Positions 1,563 to 47,821 of a DNA stretch of 64,000 nt are shown in pieces; within the stretch, counting starts at the first letter, position 1; the number at the start of each line of letters is the position of its first letter. The DNA is from a virus (taxonomy: Duplodnaviria; Caudoviricetes): positions 12,305 to 76,304 of the IMG/VR virus record IMGVR_UViG_3300020492_000001; one strand, given 5' to 3'. The position numbers were made by a program, and so were the translations under genes. Below the pieces are notes generated by a model, which saw only the letters and a list, made by a program, of their open reading frames with translations, made no database searches and was not told where the DNA came from.

Positions 1563-1688
1563 ATTCTACTTATTTATACCTCAAATGTAACGAAAATAAT
1601 TAATTGTTTTTAACTCAAAGTTGAATTAAAAAAGCCTCACATTTCTGTAAGGCTAGTTGTAATTAAATTCAAGATTGCGACCCTAGAT

Positions 1689-2351: not shown

Positions 2352-2539
2352 GCTAATAACGTATCTAATATAACACCTCCTATACCTACATAAATAGCAT
2401 AAGTAGCATTAGATTCATACCATGTCATTCCTGCAATGGCACTTACTATACCTTTTGCGTATTGCTGTAATTTTACAATCTCTGATTGGGTATTCCCGAA
2501 TAAATTAAATACCGAGAAATATACTTTATACTTTTTCAT
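2324..2539 (-). CDS. Small membrane protein, holin candidate
   Basis: Two hydrophobic segments; lysis cluster. Confidence 0.35.
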   Translation of the reverse strand: MKKYKVYFSVFNLFGNTQSEIVKLQQYAKGIVSAIAGMTWYESNATYAIYVGIGGVILDTLLACLYLEEKN

Positions 2540-2550
2540 ATCTTAATTTT

Positions 2551-3165
2551 TTAAATTATATGTTTAGATTCGATGATTGTTCCAGTAACCTTATTCCCAT
2601 AAATACCACACGATATTCTTGTAATAGGTAATATCTTTTCAAATTCAGGCTCTGGACTTCCCATACATCCCAAACTCCAATTATTAACTAATCCACTTCC
2701 ATAAGTATTATTTTGACTCATTCTGTGCCAATGTGTGCCAAATATCTTTGCTATTTGCCTTTGAACTTTATCAATAAAAGTGTCTTTATTTCCATCTCTC
2801 CAATAATTAACCTTACCAACTTGTCTGAAATAAGGATATGAACTAAATTCTTTTGTAGTATCCCTAAATTCCCATCCACCTAATACTTGCTGAGGACTTT
2901 CTATAACCGCTGTTCCTTTAATGCCTTCAACCGTTGTAGGTTCTAATAACGAACCTTTTAATCCTGGTTTTGTTGTTGCTGGAATTGTTAATATCACTTT
3001 ATCTCCATGATTTCCTTGATAACAAATATGTAAATAATCAGTAAATTTATTTGTGGCTTCAAATGAAGTTCTTTCCCAAACATAATTTAAAGAATGTGGT
3101 GCTGTAAACCATTTATATCCAAGTGATCTAACAGCTTGTTCTATTTGATTATAAGTTCTATTCAT
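2551..3165 (-). CDS. Putative endolysin (YkuD/L,D-transpeptidase-like catalytic motif)
   Basis: H-x(n)-W-S-x-G-C motif (THWHR...NWSLGC); flanked by TM proteins. Confidence 0.55.
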   Translation of the reverse strand: MNRTYNQIEQAVRSLGYKWFTAPHSLNYVWERTSFEATNKFTDYLHICYQGNHGDKVILTIPATTKPGLKGSLLEPTTVEGIKGTAVIESPQQVLGGWEFRDTTKEFSSYPYFRQVGKVNYWRDGNKDTFIDKVQRQIAKIFGTHWHRMSQNNTYGSGLVNNWSLGCMGSPEPEFEKILPITRISCGIYGNKVTGTIIESKHII

Positions 3166-3284
3166 GCTACTAATTTTTTAATATTAAACTTCTTTCTTTG
3201 ACATTAATGTTTTACAAGCATCACCGCGTACTTGCGGATGCTTTTCTTTCTAATCCTTTCAGTTATTAGTTTTTGTATTCTGAA

Positions 3285-3683
3285 CTAGATATTTTTGGCT
3301 TTTAAATAACCTGTTAGTTCAGCTAAATTATTACTAATGTTTTGCTGCATCTTTTCTACAGTGTCTAACTTGTTCCATAACTTATTGTGAGCTACTTCTT
3401 GCTCACTTTTTATTTCAGTTATTTTACTGTAAATTAAATTCTCTTTTTTTTCTACTGTATCCATGATATATTCTACTGTTGCTTTTTTTGTATTTTTAGA
3501 ATGTAAAAACTTCTCATTTACAACTTTTTTAAATTCATCTAATTCATCATTAACTTCAGATATTTTAATGTTAGCTTTTTCTGAACTTGATTTTATAACA
3601 TAAACAAAACTAACTATAGAGCCTAATCCTATGATAATTGCTACTACGTCTTTTATTCCAAATATTAATTCTGAGGCATTCAT
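3285..3683 (-). CDS. Holin-like protein (N-terminal TM plus coiled coil)
   Basis: Single N-terminal TM, charged coiled coil, directly upstream of the lysin candidate. Confidence 0.4.
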   Translation of the reverse strand: MNASELIFGIKDVVAIIIGLGSIVSFVYVIKSSSEKANIKISEVNDELDEFKKVVNEKFLHSKNTKKATVEYIMDTVEKKENLIYSKITEIKSEQEVAHNKLWNKLDTVEKMQQNISNNLAELTGYLKAKNI

Positions 3684-3763
3684 AGTCTTTTAAGTTCTTT
3701 TATTTTAAAGCAATTATTAATTCGTATATTGTTTTATGGTTATATTCTGAAATTTTAATATCA

Positions 3764-3982
3764 TTAGTTAATAATATAATTAATTAATTCACTATCTGTA
3801 ACTAAAATAATATCATCTTTTTTTAAATCTAATTCTAATACCCTTGTATTGTTTTCTGATTTGGCTAAAATAACATCATCAAAAATATTATCATTAATTT
3901 TCACAATACTATTAACATCTAAATTATTTGAAATAGTTAATACTATTTTACAGTCTTTTAATGCTTTATAAATTTCTTTCAT
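3764..3982 (-). CDS. Hypothetical protein
   Basis: ORF tightly packed in operon. Confidence 0.55.
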   Translation of the reverse strand: MKEIYKALKDCKIVLTISNNLDVNSIVKINDNIFDDVILAKSENNTRVLELDLKKDDIILVTDSELINYIIN

Positions 3983-3984
3983 AA

Positions 3985-5448
3985 TTATTTTTCTATTATT
4001 ACTGTAAAATAAACAGCCTTTGTTCCTAGACTTGCAAACACAGCACCAGCAGCAGTTGCTCTAAAATCAACGATATTGCTACCTTCCCAAACAAAACACC
4101 TAGCAAAAATATTTGTACCGTTATTTATTGCAAACCTACAATCATCTAATTGCACTCCATTATTTGTAAAAGGAAGTACAACTTGCGTATTTGAACTATT
4201 AGATATTCCTGTTACTTGTCCGTTTACAATATAATATGAACCCATATCTACAGATTTTATTTTATTAATTGAATAAGAAAGCCAACCAATTATTGTACAA
4301 CTTGCCGTTATATCTACCCAGCTATTACTTTGCTTGTTTTTCCACAAACTTGTAGCACTATCGTATGTTAATACATCGTTGTTTGCTACTCCATTTATTA
4401 AAACATTATGAAGTTCATTTAATTCATAACCATTGTCAACTTTAACAAATATAGTTCCTTGAGTTATATGAGCATGTACTACATAACCAATAATAACTAT
4501 ATGATTTGGTGCAATAGGTTTTATATTTGTAATATTACCAGCAGTTGTTGGACTTAAATATAAAATATCTCCATCCGCCCAAGTTTCGCTTTGTAAAGAA
4601 CCAGTTGTATTAATACCTCTTACTAATCCGCTTGTAGTAATAAATCCTTCTTGATTATTCGCTATTGTTTCCGTTACTAAACCAATTGTTTCAGCACTTA
4701 ATAAATCACTTGTCGCTAAAGCTAAATCTACTTTTAATCTTTGACCTTGCGCCCCTGTAACTCGTACAGCTTGATAGTTAGATTCTAATAAAGTAATGTT
4801 TGTTGCTGTTTTATTAACTACTCTTGATACTTGCTCTTGTCCGATTTGTAAAGTAACATTGCCACCTTTTAATTTTAAATCTAAAGTTCCATCTGTATCA
4901 TTCCAAACTACACTACCAGCAGTTGTTGGTATATTAGTTGGTGTATTATCAAACTCTAAATTACCTAATTGTATTCCAAACTCGCCTAAATTAACATCAC
5001 TTATTGCACCTACATAAGGTACATAACCATTAGCATCCATTTGCATGATGTTAGTCATGTTTAGATTAGGCAAATCAATAGCTTTAATTTTAAATATGTA
5101 GACTAATGCTACAGGATAAGCGGAAGGAGTACCACTAAGGACATAATTCCCACTAGTATCAAAACTAGTAACCGATACCACTGTACCACCAATGGTAAGC
5201 GGAGATTGTCCAGTTGGTTGCCCATTACTAAGTGTTTCAACAAGAGCATCGCCACCACTATAAAATTGGTCCAAAAGTATTGTCGCACCTGTGGGTTTCG
5301 TGATTGTGCCTGTTGCTGAACTGATGGTCTGGAAGTAAAGGATTTTATATTCATTATTTTCTAAATTTGTTACACGATTATTTAATGCAGGGTCTGCCCC
5401 AGCTTGACTGAATATTTTTCTAGGATTCTTTACTGCTGACTGTCCCAT
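3985..5448 (-). CDS. Tail fibre-like protein
   Basis: G/T/N-rich beta character; fibre-type segments ELNELHNVLINGVANNDVLTYDSATSLWKN. Confidence 0.65.
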   Translation of the reverse strand: MGQSAVKNPRKIFSQAGADPALNNRVTNLENNEYKILYFQTISSATGTITKPTGATILLDQFYSGGDALVETLSNGQPTGQSPLTIGGTVVSVTSFDTSGNYVLSGTPSAYPVALVYIFKIKAIDLPNLNMTNIMQMDANGYVPYVGAISDVNLGEFGIQLGNLEFDNTPTNIPTTAGSVVWNDTDGTLDLKLKGGNVTLQIGQEQVSRVVNKTATNITLLESNYQAVRVTGAQGQRLKVDLALATSDLLSAETIGLVTETIANNQEGFITTSGLVRGINTTGSLQSETWADGDILYLSPTTAGNITNIKPIAPNHIVIIGYVVHAHITQGTIFVKVDNGYELNELHNVLINGVANNDVLTYDSATSLWKNKQSNSWVDITASCTIIGWLSYSINKIKSVDMGSYYIVNGQVTGISNSSNTQVVLPFTNNGVQLDDCRFAINNGTNIFARCFVWEGSNIVDFRATAAGAVFASLGTKAVYFTVIIEK

Positions 5449-5453
5449 ATTTA

Positions 5454-5714
5454 CTAATTTTCACTAATTGGTGGAAAAGGATTTTCTTTAGGTACATATA
5501 GTATTAAAGGTAAATCTTTAACCCACATATAATTTGGATTTATGTTATTAGCCATCTCCTCAACACTAATAACCCAATTATCTGCATTATCCATTATAGG
5601 ATTAAAAAAACAGTCTGGAGCATACATCTGCCCTACTAATTCATCTTTTTGTTCTACTGTTAGAAGTCCTACATAAGTAGTGTATTCTGCTCTTGTTATA
5701 TCTGTTAGTTTCAT
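5454..5714 (-). CDS. Hypothetical protein (possible fibre chaperone)
   Basis: 86 aa between two fibre-like genes. Confidence 0.5.
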   Translation of the reverse strand: MKLTDITRAEYTTYVGLLTVEQKDELVGQMYAPDCFFNPIMDNADNWVISVEEMANNINPNYMWVKDLPLILYVPKENPFPPISEN

Positions 5715-5737
5715 AGTTTATATTGTTGTTTAAGTTT

Positions 5738-7348
5738 TTAAACTTGGCGATTTAAAGTTGTGTTAAAAGTTTGAACTGCATTGTAAAAAGCTAAGGCTTC
5801 AGCATCGGTTAATCCATCACCTATTGATGCAAAGGCACATTGTCTATTTGAAAAACTTACCGCAATTCCTTGACTATTTGAAGCACCTAAAAAAAGATTT
5901 AAATTTTGCAAAGAACCGCTTGCACCTGTATTAGTAGCACCTATTTGAGCAGAATTTTTAAATAATTTATGAATAGCACTTGTTGTTCTTGATGTAATAT
6001 AAAAACCTTGTGAGTTTGCGTTAGCAATTATAATTCTTCCAGTTGTTGAATTATATTGGTCACTAATACAACCTACCGCTGTGTATCTAAGTGCTAATAA
6101 TAATTGACCTCCAGAACCATTTGAATTACTTAAGTCAATTCCAAGATTTTCATTATTTGTTCTTGAATAATAAGAGGCGTGAGTATTGTTTAAAGTGCTT
6201 TGAGTTGATGTATTAAAAAAAGTATCTGCAAAAGCATTGGTTCCATTAGGTAAGTAGCCATTTGCACTAAACGTACCTCCACCACTAAACACTAATCTAT
6301 AAGCAGCATTAGTATCTTGTGCATTAACTAAGTTAAACTTACAAGTAGTAGCTGTTCCACCAACCATAGGGTAGATAGCTTTCATTTTAGTAAAGATATT
6401 AGCAGTCTTTAAATCACTAACTAAAGTGTTTGTAGCAGTTTGAATAGTGTTATCTGTTATTTGTGTACTAAATAAGAAAGCATTAGTTTCATTGTTGTAT
6501 GCAGGATTGTAGTAGAATGATTGAGTAGCATTTATATTTCTACCTAAAGCTACTTGATACTTTTCAGTTATTTGATAGAATAGTTGAGATTCTAAATCAG
6601 TAAGCCCATCTCCTATTGTTGAAAAAGCACATTCTCTTGGACTAAAATATGCTGAACCTACAGGTGGACCAGAATTATTCCATGCACTTATAAATATACT
6701 ACGATTACTTAACCCTTGTGAATTAACAGAAAAACTACTAATTGTTGTATTTTTTACAAGTTTTTGAACAGTAGCTGATGTTCTTGAAAGCAAATATAAA
6801 CCTGTTGTATTAGTATTAGAAACTAAAGATTGAACATTTGAATTTACAACACCATAATATGAATTACTGAAAAAAGGACAAATATAAATTGAATTTGTTA
6901 CTAATGATGAGTTTACATTAGTTCCCATGTCAAAATAAGTACCAGAAATATCATTAGTTCTTGAATAAAAACTAACATGAGTATTATTTAATGATAAAGT
7001 AGTACTTGGCAATAAAAAAGTATCTGCATAAGAATTGATACCATTAGGCTTATAGCCATTAGAACTATGAGTTCCGCCACCTATAAAACTTAGTCTAAAG
7101 GCTGCATTAGTATCTAAAGGATTTTTAAGGTTAAATTTATGAGAAGTTGCAGTACCACCTACCATTGGATAAACTGCTTTAAACTTAGTCCATATACCTA
7201 CTGCTTTGCTATCTACTACCCATTGATTAACTGCATCTTTTTCAGTAGTAGTAAGAGTTACTCCTGCTGCTGTTTGAGCATTAAAAAATAGTTGAGCATC
7301 TGGGTCATAGGTAGATGCAACTCCATATATGTACGGATTTATTATCAT
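5738..7348 (-). CDS. Virion fibre/receptor-binding-like protein with tandem duplicated ~250-aa domain
   Basis: Two halves share KAxYPMVGGTAT-x-xKFNL, SxNGYxPNGxNxxADTF, SFYSRTN and CAFxxIGDGLTD; lectin/ConA-like fold inferred. Confidence 0.6.
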   Translation of the reverse strand: MIINPYIYGVASTYDPDAQLFFNAQTAAGVTLTTTEKDAVNQWVVDSKAVGIWTKFKAVYPMVGGTATSHKFNLKNPLDTNAAFRLSFIGGGTHSSNGYKPNGINSYADTFLLPSTTLSLNNTHVSFYSRTNDISGTYFDMGTNVNSSLVTNSIYICPFFSNSYYGVVNSNVQSLVSNTNTTGLYLLSRTSATVQKLVKNTTISSFSVNSQGLSNRSIFISAWNNSGPPVGSAYFSPRECAFSTIGDGLTDLESQLFYQITEKYQVALGRNINATQSFYYNPAYNNETNAFLFSTQITDNTIQTATNTLVSDLKTANIFTKMKAIYPMVGGTATTCKFNLVNAQDTNAAYRLVFSGGGTFSANGYLPNGTNAFADTFFNTSTQSTLNNTHASYYSRTNNENLGIDLSNSNGSGGQLLLALRYTAVGCISDQYNSTTGRIIIANANSQGFYITSRTTSAIHKLFKNSAQIGATNTGASGSLQNLNLFLGASNSQGIAVSFSNRQCAFASIGDGLTDAEALAFYNAVQTFNTTLNRQV

Positions 7349-36806: not shown

Positions 36807-36880
36807 GTGGAAGTAAGTCTCAGTGGCTAGAGCTTGGGGAAAAACCCGCCAGTGCATAGGTTCGAATCCTATCTTCTACA
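36807..36880 (+). tRNA. Degenerate tRNA-like element, anticodon undetermined
   Basis: Acceptor GTGGAAG/CTTCTAC, D-loop AGTGG, T-arm ATAGG-TTCGAAT-CCTAT; anticodon arm non-canonical (GGGG-AAAAA-CCC). Confidence 0.55.
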
Positions 36881-36885
36881 CAAAT

Positions 36886-36958
36886 TGTCTGATGGTGTAA
36901 CTGGCAACACGACTGATTTTGGTTCAGTAGAGTCTAAGTTCGAGCCTTAGTCAGACAA
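36886..36958 (+). tRNA. trnQ: tRNA-Gln (anticodon TTG)
   Basis: Acceptor TGTCTGA/TCAGACA, D-stem GTGT/ACAC, anticodon arm ACTGA-TTTTGGT-TCAGT, T-arm CTAAG-TTCGAGC-CTTAG. Confidence 0.9.
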
Positions 36959-37812: not shown

Positions 37813-39378
37813 ATGATAAAGAACTTGCGTGGATACCAACAAGAAGTAATATGTAAAGTAGAAGATGCTTTAAAATCAGGAGTTAGCCGCCAGCTTGTTT
37901 GTATGGCAACTGGTTTAGGTAAAACTTTTACGGCAGTCAAGATAGTTGAGAAGCTACAATTCAAGCGTATTTTATGGATTACACATAACGAGGAGTTAAT
38001 CCAACAATCTGGACTTGCATTCCTTAAAGATAAGTTTGACGATACATTTGCTAAACACGTTCAAGATATAGGCTTCTTAGATTGGGTTGATAAACATAAC
38101 TGTAATTTCGGAAACCATACAGGAACGTTTAAAATGGGTGCAATTAAAGCCTCTGTATTTAAGATTAATGCAGAAGTTACTATGGCATCAGCACAAACTC
38201 TCTACAGAAGACTAGATAAGATTCCATTTGATTATTTCGATTGCATCGTAGTTGATGAATGTCACCTCTTCATGGCCAAGACGTTCCTACAGCCATTAGA
38301 ATACTTTAAGCCTAAATTACTACTTGGACTTACCGCCACGCCGCATCGTATGGACGGCTTATCTCTAGGCAACATATTTGAGCAAATAACCTATGAGTAT
38401 AATATAGGACAAGGTATTAAAGATGGTTACTTATGTGAGTTAGACGGAATAAGAGTACAAACTAATGTGTCATTAGATAACGTAAGAACAACCGCAGGAG
38501 AACTTAATCAGAAGGATTTAGCAGATGAAGTAAATATTCCTAGACGTAACCAATTAATTATAGATAAATACAAGGAATACGCTGATGGAAGACAAGGAAT
38601 ATTCTTTTGTGTAGACATTCAACACGCTTGCGATTTAGCGGATATGTTTATTGAAAATGGTATTAGCTGTAAACCTATTGTTGGAGATGAAGAATTTACT
38701 CCTGATAGAGTTGGTACTATACAAGATTTTAAAGATAGAAAGATACAAGTCCTTACTAATTGCCAGATACTTACTACTGGTTTTGATGAGCCAAACGTAG
38801 GGGTAATCGGTAATGCTTCTCCAACAAAGTCTTTAACTAAGTATATGCAGTCTGTTGGGCGCGGATCAAGATTAAAAGATAAAGAGTTCGTAGATAGATT
38901 TGGACAAAACTGTGTAATCCTAGACTTTGTAGATTCAAGTTCAAGACATAAGTTAATCAATACATGGACACTAGATCAAGGAAAGAACTTAGAGGATAGA
39001 GTATTCTTAACTCAGGATAAGAGAGACTATATATTAGAAGAAAGAGCTAGAAAGTCTGCTAAAGTTGAAAATTTAACTGATAAGGATGAGAGAATAAAGC
39101 TAATTGAATTACCTCCTGCTAAACAATTTGGATGGAAGAAAATGCAAGAAGCGGCAACATCCGCACAATTAAAATACATATCTGATTTAGGACACGATAT
39201 TCAAAACAATACTTACACTAAACAGCAATGCGCGGATATTATATCTTTAGAGCCTTGTAATAAAAAAGAGATAGAATATTTGAAATCTAAAGGATATGAC
39301 ACTACATTTGCCACAAAGGGCCAATACGGCACAATTTACTACGAATTAGAAATGAAAAACAAATGGAAAAAGAAGTAG
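37813..39378 (+). CDS. Superfamily 2 (DExH) helicase
   Basis: LRGYQ Q-motif, ATGLGKT, DECH, TAT, TGFDEP, QSVGRGSR. Confidence 0.9.
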   Translation: MIKNLRGYQQEVICKVEDALKSGVSRQLVCMATGLGKTFTAVKIVEKLQFKRILWITHNEELIQQSGLAFLKDKFDDTFAKHVQDIGFLDWVDKHNCNFGNHTGTFKMGAIKASVFKINAEVTMASAQTLYRRLDKIPFDYFDCIVVDECHLFMAKTFLQPLEYFKPKLLLGLTATPHRMDGLSLGNIFEQITYEYNIGQGIKDGYLCELDGIRVQTNVSLDNVRTTAGELNQKDLADEVNIPRRNQLIIDKYKEYADGRQGIFFCVDIQHACDLADMFIENGISCKPIVGDEEFTPDRVGTIQDFKDRKIQVLTNCQILTTGFDEPNVGVIGNASPTKSLTKYMQSVGRGSRLKDKEFVDRFGQNCVILDFVDSSSRHKLINTWTLDQGKNLEDRVFLTQDKRDYILEERARKSAKVENLTDKDERIKLIELPPAKQFGWKKMQEAATSAQLKYISDLGHDIQNNTYTKQQCADIISLEPCNKKEIEYLKSKGYDTTFATKGQYGTIYYELEMKNKWKKK

Positions 39379-40124: not shown

Positions 40125-40180
40125 TTTAATTATTTTGAAAATAAACGTAACCTTTTAAATTTATATACGTTTAAATAGAT

Positions 40181-40310
40181 AGATAACGTTGAGTATATAT
40201 GTTCGGTTGCGATTAATAGCACGAACTTATCAATTTAAACAAAACTTAATAGAATGAACAAAATTTCAAATAAACACGAAACCGCAACTGACATATATAC
40301 TGTGTTATGT
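40181..40310. repeat. attC-like site E1
   Basis: GATAAC-GTTG-AGTATATATG...CATATATACT-GT-GTTATGT. Confidence 0.75.
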
Positions 40311-40706
40311 GCTGCCTTTTGTGGTGCTGGTAAAACATTTATTTGTGATAAAACAGATATAAAGGCAGTTGAAGTTGAATATTGGAAGTATAAAGAAAAA
40401 GGACTGTTCAAAGAATATATTGAAGATGTTAAGAAGTATATCGGTAAGGTAGATTACATCTTTATTGCAACAGAGCCAGAAGGAATGAAATTGCTACATG
40501 ATGAAGGATTTGAAATAACTCTTGTTTACCCAAAAAATGAACTCCGAAACGAATATTTGGATAGATACATTGAGCGTGATAGTCCTTATGATTTTATTGG
40601 AACATTTATGAAGCATTGGCATATATGGATTGATGAACTTAAAGAGCAAAAATATTGTAAGCATATTATTTTGGATTCAGGACAATACTTGCAGAATGTT
40701 CTTTAA
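40254..40706 (+). CDS. Cassette 1: small P-loop NTPase/kinase-like protein
   Basis: Walker A-like AFCGAGKT; starts inside E1. Confidence 0.65.
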   Translation: MNKISNKHETATDIYTVLCAAFCGAGKTFICDKTDIKAVEVEYWKYKEKGLFKEYIEDVKKYIGKVDYIFIATEPEGMKLLHDEGFEITLVYPKNELRNEYLDRYIERDSPYDFIGTFMKHWHIWIDELKEQKYCKHIILDSGQYLQNVL

Positions 40707-40710
40707 GGTT

Positions 40711-40807
40711 GCACATAACGTTTTGCGGCTTGGCGAAGGCTGCCTAACGGATGCTCAATTTTCGCACAAATTTCAATGGCAGCTTTTGCCAAACCGCTGT
40801 TACCTGC
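40711..40807. repeat. attC-like site E2
   Basis: GCACATAAC-GTTTT-GCGGCTTGGCGAAGGCTGCC...GGCAGCTTTTGCCAAACCGC-T-GTTACCTGC. Confidence 0.85.
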
Positions 40808-41114
40808 TGGGCGGTTTATCAGTAGGAACTTAAAAATAATATTCAAAATGTTGCCAAAAGAAAAAGCACAGGAACTTGTAAGCAAGTTTAAAGATTACGT
40901 TCACGGATATGTTGGTAGCTCAATGCTTACCAACCATGAATACCCTGAACAAATTTTATCACAAGCAAAGAAAGTAGCAATTATTGTTGCAGATGAAATG
41001 CTCCATCAATACACTACTTTAAATGCTGATTTAATAAACGCATTGTATCGAACAGAAAAGGTTGTCTTTTGGCAACAGGTCAAAATAGAAATTGATTATG
41101 TGTCGGAATTGTAG
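40776..41114 (+). CDS. Cassette 2: hypothetical protein (PKEKAxEL family)
   Basis: MLPKEKAQELVSKF resembles 33452 and 34619. Confidence 0.6.
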   Translation: MAAFAKPLLPAGRFISRNLKIIFKMLPKEKAQELVSKFKDYVHGYVGSSMLTNHEYPEQILSQAKKVAIIVADEMLHQYTTLNADLINALYRTEKVVFWQQVKIEIDYVSEL

Positions 41115-41118
41115 CCTT

Positions 41119-41255
41119 GCAGGTAACGTTTCGCAGCTATATTTAGTTGCGATTTTGAAAAACAAAAGTTTAATTAATAAATAAAAGTAAATATGAAAAA
41201 CAAAGTTGAAAATAAGAGCAATAATAAGCAATTGAATATACTAGCTGTTAGGCGT
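41119..41255. repeat. attC-like site E3
   Basis: GCAGGTAAC-GTTTC-GCAGCTATATTTAGTTGC...GCAATTGAATATACTAGC-T-GTTAGGCGT. Confidence 0.8.
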
Positions 41256-41636
41256 AGTTTTTTTAACTTCAAGTATAAATGGCCATTAAGAAAATACTGG
41301 CTTAATTGGTTTAAAAGAGATGTTAAGAGATGGTATTATTCTAAAATACACGGTTTTAAAATGGGTGTATTTGATGGAACTATGATTCCAACTACTGGTA
41401 AAGGTAAATATGTATCTGTTTATTCTAAAGGTGAAATAATCCAAATTAAACATGAAAGCGGTTATGAACATTTAGAGTATGATGAAATTAGAATAATACC
41501 ATGTCAAGAAAATCACGGTGTAATGGTTGAAAGATTTAAAACAGGAAAAATGTGCGATAGAAACCACATGGATTTAAAGCAATTTAATAAAGGTATAATT
41601 TTCGCTTCCAATGTTGAACAGTTGGCTGGTCGTTAA
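41193..41636 (+). CDS. Cassette 3: hypothetical protein
   Basis: Starts in the E3 loop. Confidence 0.6.
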   Translation: MKNKVENKSNNKQLNILAVRRSFFNFKYKWPLRKYWLNWFKRDVKRWYYSKIHGFKMGVFDGTMIPTTGKGKYVSVYSKGEIIQIKHESGYEHLEYDEIRIIPCQENHGVMVERFKTGKMCDRNHMDLKQFNKGIIFASNVEQLAGR

Positions 41637-41640
41637 AATT

Positions 41641-41780
41641 ACGCCTAACGTTTTGCAACTTGCATTAGTGCCTTGCAAAAATACGAGTAGCTTCGGATTA
41701 AAAAAGAACACAACAAATAAAAAACAAACATTAAATTAACAACCAAGCCAAAGGCATTGATGCAAATTGCTGTTATGCGC
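41641..41780. repeat. attC-like site E4
   Basis: ACGCCTAAC-GTTTT-GCAACTTGCATTAGTGCCTT...AAGGCATTGATGCAAATTGC-T-GTTATGCGC. Confidence 0.85.
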
Positions 41781-41803
41781 TGGCAAAAAAAAAATTAAAA
41801 ATT

Positions 41804-42118
41804 ATGAGTACAATTATCGAAGACATTCAGTTTATGAAATCAATTTTGCCTGAACACTATGAGGTAAAAGAAAGTAAAAAATCAGGTTCAATTCATTGTA
41901 AATCAAGTATTGGATTAAGAAAAACGCCATACAATAGTTTTGATAGTTTTAAACGACCAATTATTGTTGATGATGCGGAAGATGAAGAACAATGGTTTTA
42001 TATCGTTGAAGCTATTAAAGCAAAGTTTGGCGAAAGGTTACAGGAAATTGACCATAACACTTGTTTTTGCCACGTCGATTTCACGATTTATCTGCGGTTT
42101 TCCGTTGCTTGCGCATAA
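41804..42118 (+). CDS. Cassette 4: hypothetical protein
   Basis: Stop TAA lies within GCGCATAAC. Confidence 0.6.
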   Translation: MSTIIEDIQFMKSILPEHYEVKESKKSGSIHCKSSIGLRKTPYNSFDSFKRPIIVDDAEDEEQWFYIVEAIKAKFGERLQEIDHNTCFCHVDFTIYLRFSVACA

Positions 42119-42247
42119 CGGTTTGCAGCTAAACGAGGTGGCTGATTAATACCTCGAAACTTAATTAAAAGAACAAAATTATGAACACAGACAAAAGTTT
42201 ATTAGAAGAACAAAGCAAGCCATCTTTTTTAGGTGCTGTTATGTGCC
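42111..42247. repeat. attC-like site E5
   Basis: GCGCATAAC-GGTTT-GCAGCTAAACGAGGTGGCT...AGCCATCTTTTTTAGGTGC-T-GTTATGTGCC. Confidence 0.85.
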
Positions 42248-42387
42248 GTTTTTTATTCCAATACAGAAGTATGGATAAAGATTTAATGGTACATATTGAA
42301 GCAAGTAGTTTAAATTATGCAATGGTGAAATTTGCAACTCACTACCATTTAATTGATGAAGTGTATGAGATTGCAAGGGTGTCCTAA
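42181..42387 (+). CDS. Cassette 5: hypothetical protein
   Basis: Starts in the E5 loop. Confidence 0.55.
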   Translation: MNTDKSLLEEQSKPSFLGAVMCRFLFQYRSMDKDLMVHIEASSLNYAMVKFATHYHLIDEVYEIARVS

Positions 42388-42390
42388 AAT

Positions 42391-42545
42391 GGCACATAAC
42401 GGAAAATAATAAACGTATGTGTTGGTGTGTGGTTAAAGTGTTCCTCTGGCTAATGGACAAGTACCATAACCGTAAGTGCCTAAAACTTACCATACCACGC
42501 TACGGGCGGAACACGCCAACATTACGTTTATTTATTGTTAGCAAA
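42391..42545. repeat. attC-like site E6 (long structured loop; precedes an ORF-less cassette)
   Basis: GGCACATAAC-GGAA-AATAATAAACGTATGTGTTGG...CCAACATTACGTTTATTTATT-GTTAGCAAA. Confidence 0.75.
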
Positions 42546-42556
42546 TCGTTTTAATG

Positions 42557-42638
42557 TTTGCTAACGGCATCAAGCTAAAAGCTGACCGCCTAATAAGCGG
42601 TTAGTATATGGCGGTTTGATTTTAGGTTGTGTTATGTT
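42557..42638. repeat. attC-like site E7
   Basis: TTTGCTAAC-GGCAT-CAAGCTAAAAGCTGACCGCC...GGCGGTTTGATTTTAGGTTG-T-GTTATGTT. Confidence 0.8.
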
Positions 42639-42699
42639 GGTGCGATGGCAAGTGTGTGAGGCAGTTTTATTTTATTAATTTTTAAAAAAGCGGAGGAAA

Positions 42700-42912
42700 A
42701 TGGAAAACTTATACTTTAGAAAAAAACTTATATGGGCTGAAATTGAGCGATTAAAACACGAACTTGAAAAGAATCAAGAGTTTATTAACTTATTTCAAAA
42801 ACAAAACAATGATTTGCTAAAACAGATTGAAAAGCAATTTAAAGAAATAGAAATTGTTGGAGAGCAATTACTAAAAATAGAAACAGAACAATTAATAAAA
42901 CATGATTTATGA
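42700..42912 (+). CDS. Cassette 7 gene a: coiled-coil hypothetical protein
   Basis: 70-aa ORF. Confidence 0.55.
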   Translation: MENLYFRKKLIWAEIERLKHELEKNQEFINLFQKQNNDLLKQIEKQFKEIEIVGEQLLKIETEQLIKHDL

Positions 42913-43178
42913 CAACAGAAAAACCACTTAGAAAAACAGGCAGTTATATAGTAATTGCCAAACGTTGGAGCAGCGAACAATCACATAATTACATTGTAGA
43001 TTTATGCTCAGGAATTGATTCAGCTAAAGAAATTGCAGAAAATGAAATGCGAGAGCGTGGCGGTAAATATGGGATACAGATAATTGCTTTTAGAGAAGAT
43101 AACAACGAGCAAGAAATTGTTTTTGAAATTGAAAGCCCATATAAGAATAAGGTAAATATACCTACTGATAACGCTTAG
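42909..43178 (+). CDS. Cassette 7 gene b: hypothetical protein
   Basis: ATGA overlap with gene a. Confidence 0.55.
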   Translation: MTTEKPLRKTGSYIVIAKRWSSEQSHNYIVDLCSGIDSAKEIAENEMRERGGKYGIQIIAFREDNNEQEIVFEIESPYKNKVNIPTDNA

Positions 43179-43214
43179 GTGCGTAGGCTTTTAAAAATTA
43201 ATAAAATAAAATTG

Positions 43215-43303
43215 AACATAACGGTTTGCAGCTAATAGAAGGCTGTAATTACACAAAAATATATGAGCTGTTAACTCAGCTTTTTATTAGGTGCTGTTAG
43301 TAC
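43215..43303. repeat. attC-like site E8
   Basis: AACATAAC-GGTTT-GCAGCTAATAGAAGGCTG...CAGCTTTTTATTAGGTGC-T-GTTAGTAC. Confidence 0.85.
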
Positions 43304-43351
43304 CAGTAGCCAAATTAAAATTTAAAAACAATAACAATTAAAAACTAAAAT

Positions 43352-43630
43352 ATGAAAAACAACAAAGAACAATCGTACCAATACGCTGCAATTATACAAG
43401 GCGCAATAGCAGAAATGTTAAATGAAGATAGTGATAGCGATTATAGAATATCGTTAAGCGATTTTGATGATGAGGATAAAGCAACTGCATTTTTGCACGC
43501 ATTAGCTAATATAGTGCCTTGTAATATCTATAAAAAATTAACTCAAGATGATACTGACATTTTAGGTTTTAATCATATCGCTAATAGATTAGTATATCAA
43601 TTTACAAAGCAGGACGAAGCCGAAGATTAA
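43352..43630 (+). CDS. Cassette 8: hypothetical protein
   Basis: 92-aa ORF between E8 and E9. Confidence 0.6.
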   Translation: MKNNKEQSYQYAAIIQGAIAEMLNEDSDSDYRISLSDFDDEDKATAFLHALANIVPCNIYKKLTQDDTDILGFNHIANRLVYQFTKQDEAED

Positions 43631-43646
43631 ACATCAAAGGCTATTA

Positions 43647-43780
43647 GTACTAACGGTTGGTGCTTTATTTAGTGCCGACTTAACAGATAAAATTTAATTG
43701 AAACACAAATGAAAAATAAAAAGACAAAAGTAAAATCGAAGCCGAAAACTAAGGCATTGAATAAAGCACTTGTTAGCAGT
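43647..43780. repeat. attC-like site E9
   Basis: GTACTAAC-GGTT-GGTGCTTTATTTAGTGCC...GGCATTGAATAAAGCACT-T-GTTAGCAGT. Confidence 0.85.
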
Positions 43781-43966
43781 AGTGCCTATGTGCGTTACCG
43801 CTACTCAGGTAAATCTTCTTCAATATTTTGGGATATAGTAAATTCATTACCAAAAGATGCAGACAGACAAGAGATGTATGCTTTAGGATGCGTTTTGCAA
43901 AATGTTGAAGAAGATGTGTTGAGAACACTAAGGAATATTAACAGCAAGTATGTGCGTGGCAAATAG
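43709..43966 (+). CDS. Cassette 9: hypothetical protein
   Basis: Starts in the E9 loop. Confidence 0.6.
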   Translation: MKNKKTKVKSKPKTKALNKALVSSSAYVRYRYSGKSSSIFWDIVNSLPKDADRQEMYALGCVLQNVEEDVLRTLRNINSKYVRGK

Positions 43967-43971
43967 GCATT

Positions 43972-44110
43972 ACTGCTAACGTTCTGGCGGTTGGCGTTCG
44001 TTGCCGACTTTGGAACACTAAACTTTCACTTTTAAAATAAATTTGATATGGAACACAAAACTTCAATAAACCACGAAAACGGCAATGACGCCAACCGCTT
44101 GTTACCAGCA
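43972..44110. repeat. attC-like site E10
   Basis: ACTGCTAAC-GTTCT-GGCGGTTGGCGTTCGTTGCCG...CGGCAATGACGCCAACCGCT-T-GTTACCAGCA. Confidence 0.85.
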
Positions 44111-44275
44111 GTTAGTTGGTATAAATCATTATCGCTCAACCAAAAGATGGCGCTCAAAGAAGTATCAGCATTAATTTGTGGAATGAAATGGGAAGATTTC
44201 AATATTCTATTCAGTCCACGAGAAAGACTTGAGATATTGCACAACAAATTAATATTGGAAGGTTTCCTTGTCTAA
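44048..44275 (+). CDS. Cassette 10: hypothetical protein
   Basis: Starts in the E10 loop. Confidence 0.55.
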   Translation: MEHKTSINHENGNDANRLLPAVSWYKSLSLNQKMALKEVSALICGMKWEDFNILFSPRERLEILHNKLILEGFLV

Positions 44276-44276
44276 T

Positions 44277-44379
44277 TGCTGGTAACGTTTTGCAGCTAAT
44301 AGAAGTGGCTGCTTGTAAGAACTTCTGAATTATAAACAAATGCTTGTAGCAGCCATTTTTGTTAGGTGCTGTTATAAGC
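44277..44379. repeat. attC-like site E11
   Basis: TGCTGGTAAC-GTTTT-GCAGCTAATAGAAGTGGCTGCT...AGCAGCCATTTTTGTTAGGTGC-T-GTTATAAGC. Confidence 0.85.
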
Positions 44380-44396
44380 TGTAAAAATTACGACTT

Positions 44397-44603
44397 ATGA
44401 AAACGTATTTATCATTTTACGGAGATTGTTATTACCCAAGCGGTGGTATGGGTGATTTTATTGGAGATTACGACACCAAAGAAGAAGCGATACAAGCTAT
44501 TGAAGAAGCTCACAAAAAGAACCGCCCTGATGATTTAGAATGGGAGTGGGCTTGGGCTAATGTTTGGAGTGCACATGACCGAATCGAAGTGTACACTAAG
44601 TAA
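44397..44603 (+). CDS. Cassette 11: small phage-type protein (YYPxGGxxDF family)
   Basis: YLSF...YYPSGGMGDFIGDYDTKEEA motif familiar from phage hypotheticals. Confidence 0.6.
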   Translation: MKTYLSFYGDCYYPSGGMGDFIGDYDTKEEAIQAIEEAHKKNRPDDLEWEWAWANVWSAHDRIEVYTK

Positions 44604-44611
44604 TTTTTATT

Positions 44612-44679
44612 GCTTATAACGGATGAAGCCTTACCCAGCGAAGGTGTCGACCGAGTTGGGTAAGGGTTGGGTTATAAGC
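44612..44679. repeat. attC-like site E12 (shortest, 68 bp)
   Basis: GCTTATAAC-GGAT-GAAGCCTTACCCAGC...GTTGGGTAAGGGTTG-G-GTTATAAGC. Confidence 0.8.
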
Positions 44680-44728
44680 TGACGGTTACTAATGTTACTA
44701 TGAAAAACAATTTAAAAAAAATAACGAT

Positions 44729-44914
44729 ATGATTGAAATAGAAGAATTATTTGGTGGAAATGATGCCGAAGAACACAATGTTTTATACACTATTATTAAA
44801 AATAGAGGATATAAATATTTTGAAGAAACACCCAAAACAAGTATGACTTGCGGATTAATTAAAGATTTACACGAACTAAATTACGAGATTGTAAAAAAAA
44901 ACGTTTCAAAGTAG
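44729..44914 (+). CDS. Cassette 12: hypothetical protein
   Basis: 61-aa ORF between E12 and E13. Confidence 0.55.
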   Translation: MIEIEELFGGNDAEEHNVLYTIIKNRGYKYFEETPKTSMTCGLIKDLHELNYEIVKKNVSK

Positions 44915-44923
44915 CTACCGTTT

Positions 44924-45051
44924 GCTTATAACGGTTCGCAGATAAACGCAGTTTTATGAAACAGAAATTAGATATAGAAAAAATTAGAGAGTTGGAAACC
45001 ATAGCTAAAGAATTAGATGCTGAAAAATTGCGTTTATCTGCTGTTAGCAAA
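44924..45051. repeat. attC-like site E13
   Basis: GCTTATAAC-GGTTC-GCAGATAAACGCAGTTT...AAATTGCGTTTATCTGC-T-GTTAGCAAA. Confidence 0.85.
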
Positions 45052-45153
45052 TCGGTTTGCGACCACTCTTGGATGAACACAGGATTATCAGTACAAGGCA
45101 AAAGTTTGATGGTATGCACCAAATGTAGGGAAACCAAGCAAACTGTTTGCTAA
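44956..45153 (+). CDS. Cassette 13: small putative Zn-ribbon protein
   Basis: CDHSW...CTKC; starts in the E13 loop and stops within TTTGCTAAC. Confidence 0.55.
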   Translation: MKQKLDIEKIRELETIAKELDAEKLRLSAVSKSVCDHSWMNTGLSVQGKSLMVCTKCRETKQTVC

Positions 45154-45200
45154 CTATTATATGTAAACTACCCTTTAAACTAACAGCAAAATCAATACTC
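45146..45200 (-). other. attI-like half-site
   Basis: Core GTTAGCAAA on the minus strand with no palindromic partner arm; second GTTAG about 30 bp away; lies just 5' of the recombinase start. Confidence 0.55.
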
Positions 45201-45221
45201 TTTAATTAAAAAATCGAAAAT

Positions 45222-46055
45222 ATGAATTTAGAAAAGTGGATAAATAGATATAAAACTGATTGTGCTTTAAAGTATAATAGTGATGCAACCAAAGAAAATT
45301 ACACTTCTGGAGTTAAATCTTTTCTTATAAAATTCGATAAATATTCTGAGCCTAAAGAAATACCGACTCAGGAAATTAAAGAGTATTTATTGACTTTTAA
45401 AACGATAAATACACGAAAGCATAACCTTTGCTCTATTAAATCTTTCTATAAATTAACTGTAGGTATGCCAAGCAAGATTGATAAGATTCCTTATCCTAAG
45501 TCTGATAAGAAACTACCTATCGTTCTTTCTGTAAACGAAATTCAAAGAATGTTTAATGTCTGCCAAAATAAGAAGCATAAAGCAATTTTAGCTTTACTGT
45601 ACTCTTGTGGATTACGTGTATCGGAACTTATAAATTTGAAATGGAAAGATATTGATAGAAGTAGAATGGTAATTAATATAATCCAAGCTAAGGGAAATAA
45701 GGATAGGCAAGTCCCATTATCTCAAGATTTGATTAATGTATTAGAAAGTTACTGGAATGAGTACAAGTCCGCCGAGTATGTTTTTAATGGACAAAAATCA
45801 CTGCAATACACAGATAGAAGTGTAGGAGAAGTAATTAAACAGTTGGCAGATAAAGCAGGAATATGTAATAAAAGGGTTTACACACACCTTATGCGTCATT
45901 GCAGCTTTACGCACATGGTTGAGAACGGAACTGATATTTCGCTTATCCAAAGACTCGCTGGACATTCTAGTGTAAAAACGACTAATATCTACCTCCATAT
46001 CAGCCATAATCACATAAGTAAAATCCAAAGTCCACTAAGTAATATTAAATTATAA
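45222..46055 (+). CDS. Tyrosine recombinase, integron-integrase-like (lacks IntI-specific insertion)
   Basis: SAM-like N-terminal domain; KLPIVLS; complete catalytic set GLRVSE, KGNKDR, THLMRH, LAGH, TNIY. Confidence 0.9.
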   Translation: MNLEKWINRYKTDCALKYNSDATKENYTSGVKSFLIKFDKYSEPKEIPTQEIKEYLLTFKTINTRKHNLCSIKSFYKLTVGMPSKIDKIPYPKSDKKLPIVLSVNEIQRMFNVCQNKKHKAILALLYSCGLRVSELINLKWKDIDRSRMVINIIQAKGNKDRQVPLSQDLINVLESYWNEYKSAEYVFNGQKSLQYTDRSVGEVIKQLADKAGICNKRVYTHLMRHCSFTHMVENGTDISLIQRLAGHSSVKTTNIYLHISHNHISKIQSPLSNIKL

Positions 46056-46453: not shown

Positions 46454-47821
46454 ATGGACTTAAAACAAAAAGAAAGAGAAGTACTTAATCTATTTGCGGA
46501 TAATGCTGATTTATTTGTTAATTGTGAACACTTGGTATTTGAAAACTTATGGTCCACAAACTTTAATAAGGTTAAATTCAAAATTATAACTTATAATCAT
46601 AGTAAAGGTAAGAAATCTGACATTTACCTGCTCTCTAATATGCTTATTAAGGCAGGTTGTAACAAAAAAGAAATCGGACTTGAAGTGTCTGAGCCTAATT
46701 ATAAAATCGCTAAGAATGTAGATGAGTATGTTAAGGATATTTTTGATGAGTATTCTAAGCGACAATTAACTCCATTACTTCAAAGAGTTCACTCAGAGCT
46801 TAGTTCTGAATTAGGAGATGTAAATAGCTGTTTAGAAGATTTAAAGACGGCAGTGAACGATATAGAGAGTATTAAGAATAATCTTTCTGTAGATAAAAAA
46901 GCAACTGATATTTTTGATCAAGCATTTAACGAGTTAATGGAAGCTCAGAATAATATAAAAGAGATAGTTGGTTATTCTACAGGGCTTAAAGATTTAGATA
47001 AGATGTGTGGTGGACTAAAACAAGAGGTTATTGTTATTGGAGCGCCTCCTGGTTCTGGTAAAAGTTCATTAATGGTAAACATCGTTGATAATGTAGCTAT
47101 CAAACAAGGTAAGCCTGTTGCTGTGTTTTCTTTAGAGATGCCTGCTACTCAATTAATGAAGAATATGTGGGCCAACAACCTTACAATTAATTCTTATGCG
47201 ATACGTGGCGGAGGATTGTTAGATGAAGATTTAGTAAAAGTAAAGAAGTACAAGCAAAGATTAAAAGATAATTTAGTCATAGATGACACCCCAGGAATTA
47301 CTTGGCAGTATATGGAGACTAGAATAAGAAAGATGCGTAAAACAGTTCCTATGAATGAATTGATAGTTGTTATGGTAGACTATATTCAAATTATGAGAAA
47401 TACTATTGAGGAGACAAGAGGGATTAGTAGTGAAGAGCAATTAGGATTAAGAAGTAACGGCTTAATGGAACTTTCTAAGAAATATAATCTTTGCATGATG
47501 GAATTATCTCAATTATCTAGGGAAGTTGGTAAGAGAGAGAATAAAAAGCCTGTAATGGGAGATTTAAAAGGCTCAGGAGCTATTGAAGCAAACGCTGTAC
47601 AGATATGGTTACTCTATAGGCCAGACTACTTTGAAACCGATCCTATGGAGAATGGAATGTCTTTAAAAGGACTCTGCGAGATTAATATGGCTAAGAATAG
47701 ATATGGAGAGACAGGTAGAAGATATGTAAGATTTGAAGGTAAATACTCAGCATTTAAAGATTTTGATATTAATGAAGTTAATGGATTAGTAACAGGAAGT
47801 AGCAATGGAGATGAGTTCTAA
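46454..47821 (+). CDS. dnaB: Replicative DnaB-like helicase
   Basis: GAPPGSGKS, FSLEM, VDYIQ, LSQLSR, DLKGSGAIE, KNRYG. Confidence 0.92.
   Translation: MDLKQKEREVLNLFADNADLFVNCEHLVFENLWSTNFNKVKFKIITYNHSKGKKSDIYLLSNMLIKAGCNKKEIGLEVSEPNYKIAKNVDEYVKDIFDEYSKRQLTPLLQRVHSELSSELGDVNSCLEDLKTAVNDIESIKNNLSVDKKATDIFDQAFNELMEAQNNIKEIVGYSTGLKDLDKMCGGLKQEVIVIGAPPGSGKSSLMVNIVDNVAIKQGKPVAVFSLEMPATQLMKNMWANNLTINSYAIRGGGLLDEDLVKVKKYKQRLKDNLVIDDTPGITWQYMETRIRKMRKTVPMNELIVVMVDYIQIMRNTIEETRGISSEEQLGLRSNGLMELSKKYNLCMMELSQLSREVGKRENKKPVMGDLKGSGAIEANAVQIWLLYRPDYFETDPMENGMSLKGLCEINMAKNRYGETGRRYVRFEGKYSAFKDFDINEVNGLVTGSSNGDEF

Follow-up and report, generated by a model that had tools for sequence, protein, structure and literature searches.

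A putative phage-encoded, integron-like platform of hairpin-bounded gene cassettes beside a Xer-like tyrosine recombinase

Integrons are viewed as cellular gene-capture devices that are defined by IntI and attC. The locus described here lies in a 64-kb stretch of viral DNA (the window; bases 12305-76304 of the 76,304-bp IMG/VR virus record IMGVR_UViG_3300020492_000001) and consists of 13 hairpin sites alternating with small genes, followed by the gene of a Xer-like tyrosine recombinase. We propose, with a probability of roughly 80%, that it constitutes a phage-encoded, integron-like platform for site-specific recombination, in which the adjacent recombinase acts on sites folded from the + strand. 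This proposal builds on the sites and their covarying fold, on the cassette boundaries, on the exchange and reordering of cassettes between phages and on the linkage of the sites to one recombinase clade. All features described below are on the + strand of the window unless stated otherwise.

Architecture and detection of the hairpin sites

Thirteen imperfect palindromes (S1-S13), every one on the + strand, occupy positions 40179-45051 and separate short genes, as the first-pass annotation of this DNA had reported. Their left AAC cores start at 40185, 40717, 41125, 41647, 42117, 42398 and 42563 (S1-S7) and at 43220, 43652, 43978, 44284, 44618 and 44930 (S8-S13), and the span from AAC to GTT varies between 56 and 142 nt. 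Each site opens with five variable bases and YAAC and closes with GTTR and five variable bases. All 13 share a common fold made up of an AAC/GTT closing box, a bulge of 4-5 nt in the 5' arm opposite 1-2 nt of the 3' arm, a stem of ~14-25 bp and a loop of variable length. In the closing box YAAC-G pairs with T-GTTR, the G after AAC wobbling with T in 35 of 37 aligned sites, and the unpaired spacer is uneven, with 4-6 nt on the AAC arm versus 1-2 nt on the GTT arm (59 sites). As in integrons, imperfect palindromes with RYYYAAC and GTTRRRY cores bound the cassettes, and crossover maps to the AAC/GTT triplet. Within the class of sites of ~125 nt, the loops are A-rich (alignment columns about 95-120), and a TTAAATTAA-like element often stands shortly 5' of the right arm.

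The core sequence itself is concentrated at this locus. In the window the decamer YAACGKTYBG has 12 copies versus 1.0 expected, a count reached in 0 of 100 shuffles, and nine of these copies are found within the array on the + strand; a stricter core pattern has six copies in the whole 76-kb genome, all inside the array. A first hairpin scanner with a threshold of 13/16 was too permissive (~30 matches per shuffled genome); its threshold was raised, and a covariance model (CM) was then used instead. The CM was built from 37 sites of the commonest length class, seven of them from the window, and run with filters off. This check, which the first-pass annotation had suggested, gave 13 full-length matches in the 64-kb window, precisely S1-S13 and all on the + strand. 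Six of them were outside the training set, and nothing else scored below E 0.6. An Rfam search of the window with gathering and E-value thresholds returned two tRNAs and one chance microRNA, and no known RNA or attC family.

The sites were also considered as purely regulatory elements. This reading was dropped because no promoter or terminator motif is enriched: sigma-70-like promoters (25 found versus 31.8 expected), terminator-like sites (4 versus 3.4) and the Bacteroidota -7 motif TAnnTTTG (100 versus 104) all occur at chance frequency. A phage-type promoter that had been annotated at 40147-40174 is likewise unsupported, neither the sigma-70-like nor the -7 motif being enriched. Phage-specific promoters may yet reside within the sites.

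Cassettes of the array

We defined a cassette as running from the base after one AAC through the next AAC, and scored its own ends by comparing the six bases before the terminal AAC with the six after its own GTT (own-end score). Behind its hairpin a cassette has none, one or two small genes. The left, distal boundary of the variable region is a conserved flank ending in ATAGAT|AAC (40179-40187), and identity to relatives stops at 40190-40193; for L010 this junction was followed nucleotide by nucleotide. S1 (40179-40312; AAC 40185-40187, GTT 40304-40306; 82.5 bits; own-end 6/6) opens cassette c1 (40188-40719), whose open reading frame (ORF; 40254-40706) encodes a P-loop protein and starts in the S1 loop. 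A PHROG 4182 match to this protein begins at residue 16, within the right arm of S1, which confirms that coding runs through the arm. S2 (40711-40807; 53.5 bits, not in the training set; 6/6) is followed in c2 (40720-41127) by an ORF from 40848, a start located after the site that fits a PHROG 21441 match. S3 (41119-41255; 100.3 bits; 6/6) opens c3 (41128-41649; ORF 41193-41636). Fold, CM and own-end complementarity together define S4 (41641-41780), which starts c4 (41650-42119; ORF 41804-42118), S5 (42111-42246), which starts c5 (42120-42400), S9 (43646-43780), which starts c9 (43655-43980), and S10 (43972-44109), which starts c10 (43981-44286).

The sixth cassette differs in having no convincing gene: c6 (42401-42565) measures 165 nt and is nearly all taken up by the 142-nt hairpin of S6 (42392-42545; -45.3 kcal/mol with RNA parameters; 21.5 bits, E 0.047; 6/6). 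This cassette may be empty, or a small RNA may be its product. S7 (42557-42639; 17.9 bits, E 0.2; 5/6) opens c7 (42566-43222), which has ORFs at 42700-42912 and 42909-43178, and S8 (43214-43304; 44.9 bits, not in the training set; 5/6) opens c8 (43223-43654; ORF 43352-43630). Towards the recombinase gene follow S11 (44278-44379; 64.7 bits, not in the training set; 6/6) with c11 (44287-44620; ORF 44397-44603, Pfam Phage_T4_Y07C), S12, the shortest site with 56 nt from core to core (44612-44679; 18.4 bits, E 0.17; 6/6), with c12 (44621-44932; ORF 44729-44914), and S13 (44924-45051; 67.8 bits; 6/6) with c13 (44933-45154; ORF 44956-45153).

Several predicted genes overlap the recombination sites. 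Putative ORFs start in the loop and cross their own right arm at 40254-40312, 42181-42246, 43709-43780, 44048-44109 and 44956-45051. Moreover, the stop codons of the c4 gene (42116-42118) and of the c13 gene (45151-45153) are the TAA of the next core (TAAC); because every core provides TAA, both genes would keep a stop codon after moving.

Exchange of cassettes and a footprint of circles

In the relatives L009, L010, L012, L036-L038 and L145 (related loci are designated by L numbers), the conserved flanks end at 40190-40193 and restart at 45148-45151. With these flanks constant, content and order of the cassettes vary among close relatives, which are contigs from IMG/VR and other metagenomes, as they do in integrons. 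The earlier claim that the phage shuffles small genes at hairpin sites is borne out by this comparison, which had been set beforehand as one able to refute it: between the conserved flanks gene content and order are not identical, and the breakpoints lie at the cores. L010, L012 and L145 have the same flanks as the window and a recombinase gene 98.8-99.9% identical to its own, in a backbone that is merely 84-94% identical. Their array reads two novel units, then c11, c10, c5, a novel unit and c9, so that four cassettes 97.7-100% identical to those of the window stand in a changed order. Thus, c5 is 100% identical in the three loci at another array position, c10 is 97.7% identical and is found there after c11, not before it, and c9, 100% identical in these loci and in L013, adjoins the recombinase there. 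Within the same flanks, L009 and L036-L038 carry ~1.7 kb of cassettes unrelated to those of the window, and L009 and L014 have one cassette in common and differ in the others. A shared stretch also occurs in L034, whose recombinase is merely 63% identical to that of the window: 84 nt (L034 476-559, window 42616-42699), comprising the right arm of S7 and the leader to the first ATG of c7, are 97.6% identical, and the genes that follow differ.

Read base by base, the junctions join DNA upstream of one site's TAAC to DNA downstream of another's TAACG. At the c11|c10 junction the arms of S12 and S10 are unrelated, and only TAACG is in common. Another sample yielded the 77-kb contig L147, of which 2.7 kb are 100% identical to the window; this identity ends with the C of AAC 44620, and unrelated sequence begins at the next base. 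At 100% identity, c11 is also found in a different replication-module backbone (L147, L149), where the junction immediately follows AAC 44620. Because the junctions of relatives fall within the TAACG core, we place the crossover within TAAC, which fits a cleavage in the AAC triplet; a crossover in the left core implies that the mobile unit would be the hairpin first and then the gene.

The ends of the cassettes point in the same direction. The six bases that precede the terminal AAC of a cassette match the reverse complement of the six that follow its own GTT at 76 of 78 positions (6/6 in 11 cassettes and 5/6 in two), whereas the two halves of one site as they stand in the array are complementary at 42 of 78. 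When cassette partners were permuted, the mean was 39.9 and the maximum 61, and none of 20000 permutations reached 76. Since a perfect 9-bp closing box arises solely when the two ends of one cassette join, we interpret this complementarity as the footprint of circular intermediates. The pattern extends beyond the window: in 14 related arrays with automatically called sites, at least 5/6 positions match in 72% of the cassettes, compared with 8% when the halves are taken as they stand in the array and 6% when pairs are random. In bacterial chromosomes, 14 of 20 sites have an exact 9-mer partner 0.6-4.3 kb away on the downstream side, and no site has one upstream.

Covariation and strand bias

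Among 59 distinct sites from the window and related genomes, all four Watson-Crick pair types are found at nearly every stem position. An alignment of 37 sites shows compensatory double changes in 14 of 19 consensus pairs, and 90.4% of its cells are paired versus 65.5% in shuffles (0 of 500 reach it), a percentage inflated by the scanner's pre-selection of sites for stem pairing, which does not affect the diversity of pair types. Double-change cells number 178 versus 62.7, the covariation score is 0.557 versus 0.155, and slid controls reach 35-50% paired. It is therefore structure rather than sequence that is conserved among the sites.

Non-canonical pairs recur at set positions of the stem and are unevenly distributed between the strands. 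A G-T pair is present near stem position 14 in 36 of the 59 sites, and the stems of the phage sites hold 115 G-T versus 34 A-C pairs. Because of this excess the + strand folds better than its complement, being the stabler strand for 13 of the 13 sites with DNA parameters and for 12 with RNA parameters. Bacterial sites of the same family (see below) have 38 G-T versus 3 A-C pairs on the same hairpin-first strand, and there the genes are on the opposite strand. Since the G-T-rich strand is thus not the coding strand in bacteria, the bias is a property of folded DNA and not of mRNA. Judged from where the crossover lies, the favoured strand is equivalent to the 'bottom' strand of integrons.

Recombinase and attI-like end of the array

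As had been annotated, the array ends just before an intact tyrosine recombinase gene (45222-46055), the last core ending at 45154 and the ATG at 45222 following 67 nt later. The product, a Xer-like protein of 277 aa and the candidate cassette recombinase, matches PF00589 (Phage_integrase, E 9.9e-39) and PF13495 (SAM_4), and the catalytic residues R132, K157, H222, R225, H248 and Y257 are invariant in 14 homologues. It falls below every curated NCBIfam cut-off: XerA_Arch gives 198 bits (cut-off 220), XerD 175.3 (329.6), XerC 162.4 (335.15), the integron integrase model TIGR02249 164.5 in two stretches with the middle missing (265) and NF011946 86.4 (435). The IntI profile is nevertheless among its top three NCBIfam matches. 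Compared with VchIntIA (2a3v), residues 173-201 face chain residues 176-247, a difference of ~43 residues that corresponds to the absence of the IntI-specific insertion; a C-terminal SPL tail is common to both proteins. Because this insertion is absent and the scores stay below the curated cut-offs, the enzyme, judged from its sequence, is not a bona fide IntI.

The closest solved relatives by sequence are archaeal XerA (4a8e, 5hxy) and XerD. No cultured phage was found with a close homologue, the best tblastn match being 32% identical (Polaribacter phage Leef_1). Metagenomes contain hundreds of recombinase clusters more than 70% identical to it, labelled XerD wherever a label exists.

Between the array and the recombinase start (45146-45221) the DNA forms no hairpin. 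This region begins with the half-site TTTGCT|AAC, contains TAYTATATGTA, and includes the point where flank identity restarts (45148-45151). AAC-TAYTATATGTA is present 55-70 nt 5' of the recombinase ATG in most of 27 aligned related loci, whose enzymes are 57-100% identical. We read the motif region after the terminal AAC as an attI-like site, the putative site of insertion. Two direct copies of TAAACTA, 12 nt apart, lie at 45163-45180 and recall the accessory direct repeats of attI1; relatives keep TAYTATATGTA better than these repeats. A different arrangement is seen in L147 (2724/2725) and L149 (415/416), where small genes and the genes of a DnaA_C-like protein and of a Prim-Pol primase come after the array and no recombinase adjoins it; the junction reads TAAC|AATCTGC and is possibly another attI-like end. 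Seen from the - strand, the recombinase of the window points away from the array and has the attI-like site at its 5' end, and the hairpin is the last part of each cassette. This layout is that of a classical integron, but with all genes inverted.

Related loci in phages and bacteria

In most scanned related phage loci with upstream DNA (recombinase 57-100% identical), sites are found upstream of the recombinase on the same strand, and almost no sites of the family occur elsewhere in these loci. The association recurs in bacteria. In Flavobacteriaceae and Parvicellaceae chromosomes, such as NZ_CP159833, OZ253949 and OZ246014, recombinases 35-49% identical to the phage enzyme adjoin arrays of the same site family, arranged in the classical gene-then-site order with the recombinase upstream in the same direction. 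Seven bacterial loci of this sister recombinase clade have sites, and no CM sites were detected at loci with more distant recombinases. The bacterial array-adjacent enzymes are also devoid of the IntI insertion (profile positions 185-238 are missing), and no IntI scored above cut-off in 14 control genomes or in 3 bacterial genomes. A recombinase tree built without IntI, and hence silent on how the clade relates to IntI, groups the phage enzymes in one clade (100/100) and the bacterial array-adjacent enzymes in another (95/90). Both are separate from the housekeeping Xer-like genes that these genomes also encode (98/95).

The site family is also widespread outside such arrays. The model matches 70 of 81 sampled genomes of the Flavobacteriaceae, the family of NZ_CP159833, with up to 26 scored matches per genome; the matches occur at many loci, some clustered on one strand and others as lone cassettes whose 9-mer partner lies at a distance. 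The cultured Flavobacterium phage vB_FspS_snusmum6-1 (L001, MN812234, 39 kb, record 1-7334) carries at least 10 family sites, all on the same strand and interspersed with small genes and with two genes of DNA methyltransferases; S4 is 88.7% identical over 139 nt to one of them. A 642-kb uncultured phage (LR756502, L002) has two family sites (4300-4443 and 4998-5094), one of which is 87% identical to the S2 region. Finally, P12002L_attC1 of phage P12002L has the architecture of the family, and this phage carries further family sites.

Genomic setting and cargo

The 76,304-bp record has direct terminal repeats and is rated 100% complete. It represents a tailed phage, with the genes of the major head protein, portal, large terminase and exonuclease on the - strand and the replication module on the + strand, and the array sits inside this module. 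A DNA helicase gene lies upstream of it (37813-39378; PHROG 16, E 5.2e-79). Beyond the recombinase, a DnaB-like replicative helicase gene follows at 46454-47821 (PHROG 19, E 1.9e-72), where a DnaB gene had been annotated. Two adjacent tRNA genes (36807-36958; Rfam 59.7 and 30.9 bits) precede the replication module. The phage almost certainly infects Bacteroidota, because contigs of 68-156 kb with recombinase homologues (56-71% identical) bin with genomes of Flavobacteriaceae, Chitinophagaceae, Sphingobacteriaceae and Saprospiraceae.

The cassette genes of the window are small and, according to Pfam and PHROGs, almost all without an assigned function, the exceptions being the P-loop protein of c1 and the Phage_T4_Y07C protein of c11. 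The arrays of relatives are more informative. Among their 91 ORFs, 13 are DNA methyltransferases (C5, N4/N6 or Dam), and a TET-associated glycosyltransferase and a Mu Gam homologue are also encoded; several of these genes are individually bounded by sites. These annotations point to a cargo of anti-restriction and other counter-defence genes. Since relatives carry DNA-modification genes as cassettes, the array likely serves as a reservoir of counter-defence and host-takeover genes.

Proposed mechanism and alternative explanations

We infer a single-stranded substrate, the strand that is used and the exact bond that is cleaved, as follows. The + strand would become transiently single-stranded during replication of the phage and fold at each site, and the recombinase may, as the first-pass annotation proposed, be expressed while single-stranded DNA is abundant. 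The recombinase, which we take as the probable catalyst, would bind the closing box and cleave in AAC at the base of the 5' arm. On the cleaved strand ~6 nt (C, G and the bulge) would precede the stem, a usual spacing of the central region in tyrosine-recombinase sites, and 1-2 nt on the opposite strand. This asymmetry of the spacer would kink the site and could set the choice of strand and orientation without the IntI helix. When adjacent sites recombine, the cassette between them would be released as a circle whose 9-bp closing box is perfect. The enzyme would reinsert circles either at another hairpin or at the attI-like site, 67 nt 5' of its own gene.

Several observations weigh against this proposal. 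The link between recombinase and sites is an indirect one. In the sole solved integrase-attC complex the IntI insertion binds the extrahelical bases, and with this insertion absent, hairpin recognition would need another mode. The phage and bacterial array clades are joined weakly in the tree (81/56), S6, S7 and S12 reach just E 0.05-0.2 with the CM, and the sites used for covariation had been pre-selected as noted above. Moreover, sites are abundant without a nearby recombinase in snusmum6-1, in P12002L and in dispersed bacterial cassettes, so that a trans-acting, possibly host-encoded, recombinase could do the work.

This last point leads to an explanation that we regard as unlikely, though it deserves attention: the cassettes are mobile but are moved in trans, for example by an array-associated Xer-like enzyme of the host, and the phage enzyme serves in lysogenic integration or multimer resolution. 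It would account for the sites of phages that have no close homologue of the enzyme (snusmum6-1, P12002L and the 642-kb phage), for the sites of 70 of the 81 Flavobacteriaceae genomes, many of them far from any array, and for c11 in a backbone where the array is not followed by a recombinase. It does not explain why the array abuts a same-strand recombinase in most scanned related phage loci with upstream DNA, why the non-hairpin motif is kept 55-70 nt 5' of the start codon in most of the 27 loci, or why chromosomal arrays abut a sister clade that differs from the housekeeping Xer-like genes also present in those genomes. Shuffling by homologous recombination between regulatory repeats, with no site-specific step, is considerably less probable. 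Several sites, such as S5, S8 and S11, do have 15-30 nt of near-identical arm sequence in common, and the promoter-terminator stem-loops (PeSLs) of T4-like phages provide a precedent (PMC2839356, PMC4122927). However, junctions such as c11|c10 join sites with just TAACG in common, and in L147 a site core is joined to non-site DNA. Homologous recombination would neither create nor keep the 6-nt complementarity of a cassette's own ends, the structure covaries as the sequence diverges, and promoter or terminator motifs are not enriched.

We give slightly less credence still to a bona fide integron, in which the recombinase would be a diverged IntI and the sites ordinary attC. AAC/GTT cores, cassette logic and an attI-like site all fit it, as do the SPL tail shared with VchIntIA and the rank of the IntI profile; in addition, HattCI called the family member of phage P12002L as an attC (Qi et al. 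2023, PMC9892861). Against it stand the missing IntI insertion, the bit scores far short of the IntI cut-offs (164.5 versus 265 and 86.4 versus 435), a spacer geometry unlike that of canonical attC and the fate of P12002L_attC1, which was unconfirmed by the Infernal attC model and not recombined by IntI1 (PMC9892861). That the hairpins act only at the RNA level, as mRNA stabilisers or translation regulators in 5' leaders, with an incidental cassette pattern, is hardly credible. The phage hairpins do lie in 5' leaders and the sense fold is the stabler one in 12 of 13 with RNA parameters; yet the G-T bias is on the non-coding strand in bacterial arrays, breakpoints and own-end complementarity are features of DNA, and no Rfam family matches. 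An additional role of the hairpins as RNA is compatible with all of this.

We therefore retain the phage-encoded platform with its adjacent Xer-like recombinase as our reading of the locus. In a broader form, which we hold with less assurance but still think rather probable, the locus belongs to a second lineage of hairpin-based cassette recombination, which would rely on short Xer-like enzymes without the IntI insertion and on a differently kinked site, pervade the chromosomes of Flavobacteriaceae and other Bacteroidota, and have been taken up by a large family of their phages as an autonomous platform to acquire, reorder and exchange counter-defence genes during replication. On this broader reading an IntI-specific domain would be dispensable for integron-type chemistry. 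At this locus a phage would possess the whole platform itself, and the traffic of cassettes is evident among natural relatives. Should the recombinase act as we propose, the need for the IntI insertion in folded-site recombination opens to direct test. Such activity would also bring to light mobile cassettes of Bacteroidota and of their viruses, a pool both large and hitherto hidden, offer a mechanism by which anti-restriction genes and other early genes could turn over rapidly in the plastic regions of phages, and provide a viral counterpart of the chromosomal integrons that store anti-phage defences.

Comparison with known systems

The first-pass annotation had described the locus as having the layout of an integron. 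This description holds for the cassette logic, the cores and the adjoining recombinase; it does not hold for the enzyme, which is not IntI, for the site geometry, which is not that of canonical attC, or for the genes, which are inverted. Like integrons, including sedentary chromosomal ones and those of the 'inverted integrase' type (e.g. Treponema denticola), the locus has a recombinase adjoining a putative, non-hairpin attI-like site, and an array of imperfect-palindrome sites closed by AAC/GTT, with crossover in the triplet and ends that are complementary in the circle. Cassette content and order vary between close relatives in both, and one strand folds better. In canonical attC, the R and L boxes surround a roughly symmetric unpaired spacer of 5/6 nt, and the extrahelical bases are on the arm opposite cleavage; the phage-family site has its bulge on the arm that carries the crossover. 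Unlike an integron integrase, the phage recombinase has no IntI-specific insertion and scores below the IntI cut-offs. Every phage gene follows its hairpin and reads towards the recombinase, whereas in the classical arrangement the gene comes first and attC after it, genes point away from attI and a promoter at the attI end drives them. Finally, the platform belongs to the phage genome and is not a captured host integron.

Xer recombinases share with the phage enzyme their kinship, XerA (4a8e, 5hxy) and XerD being its closest solved relatives, and XerCD is known to recombine the folded single strand of the CTX phage attP, a hairpin with an unpaired centre. The phage enzyme differs from XerC and XerD in scoring far below cut-off, and its locus has no dif-like site or cell-division context; moreover, the array-bearing bacteria have separate housekeeping Xer-like genes.

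Surveys with IntegronFinder found essentially no integrons in Bacteroidetes beyond Salinibacter (PMC9024848). Our literature searches returned no account of a Xer-like cassette system owned by a phage or present in Bacteroidota, which is not proof that none exists. Among 10,705 phage genomes screened by Qi et al. 2023 (PMC9892861), complete integrons were present only as pieces of host integrons in temperate phages. The same study reported 17 small clusters of attC without an integrase, those shown as examples having about 2-4 sites, and tested mobility solely with IntI1 in E. coli; P12002L_attC1, called by HattCI alone, was the sole site of six that IntI1 did not recombine. These clusters resemble the present array: in phages that infect environmental bacteria, small genes and genes of DNA methyltransferases lie between attC-like sites. 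They differ from it in the number of sites, which is 13 here, in the linked recombinase and in the natural exchange between relatives.

Among phages, the closest analogue is the shuffling at PeSLs of T4-like phages (PMC2839356, PMC4122927). In both systems small accessory genes of plastic regions are separated by conserved stem-loops, and relatives differ by insertion, deletion or replacement at these stem-loops. PeSLs are promoter-terminator motifs thought to act via homologous recombination, without a recombinase, whereas the locus described here has breakpoints within a core of 4-5 nt, a footprint of circles and a linked recombinase gene, and its sites show no enrichment of promoters or terminators.

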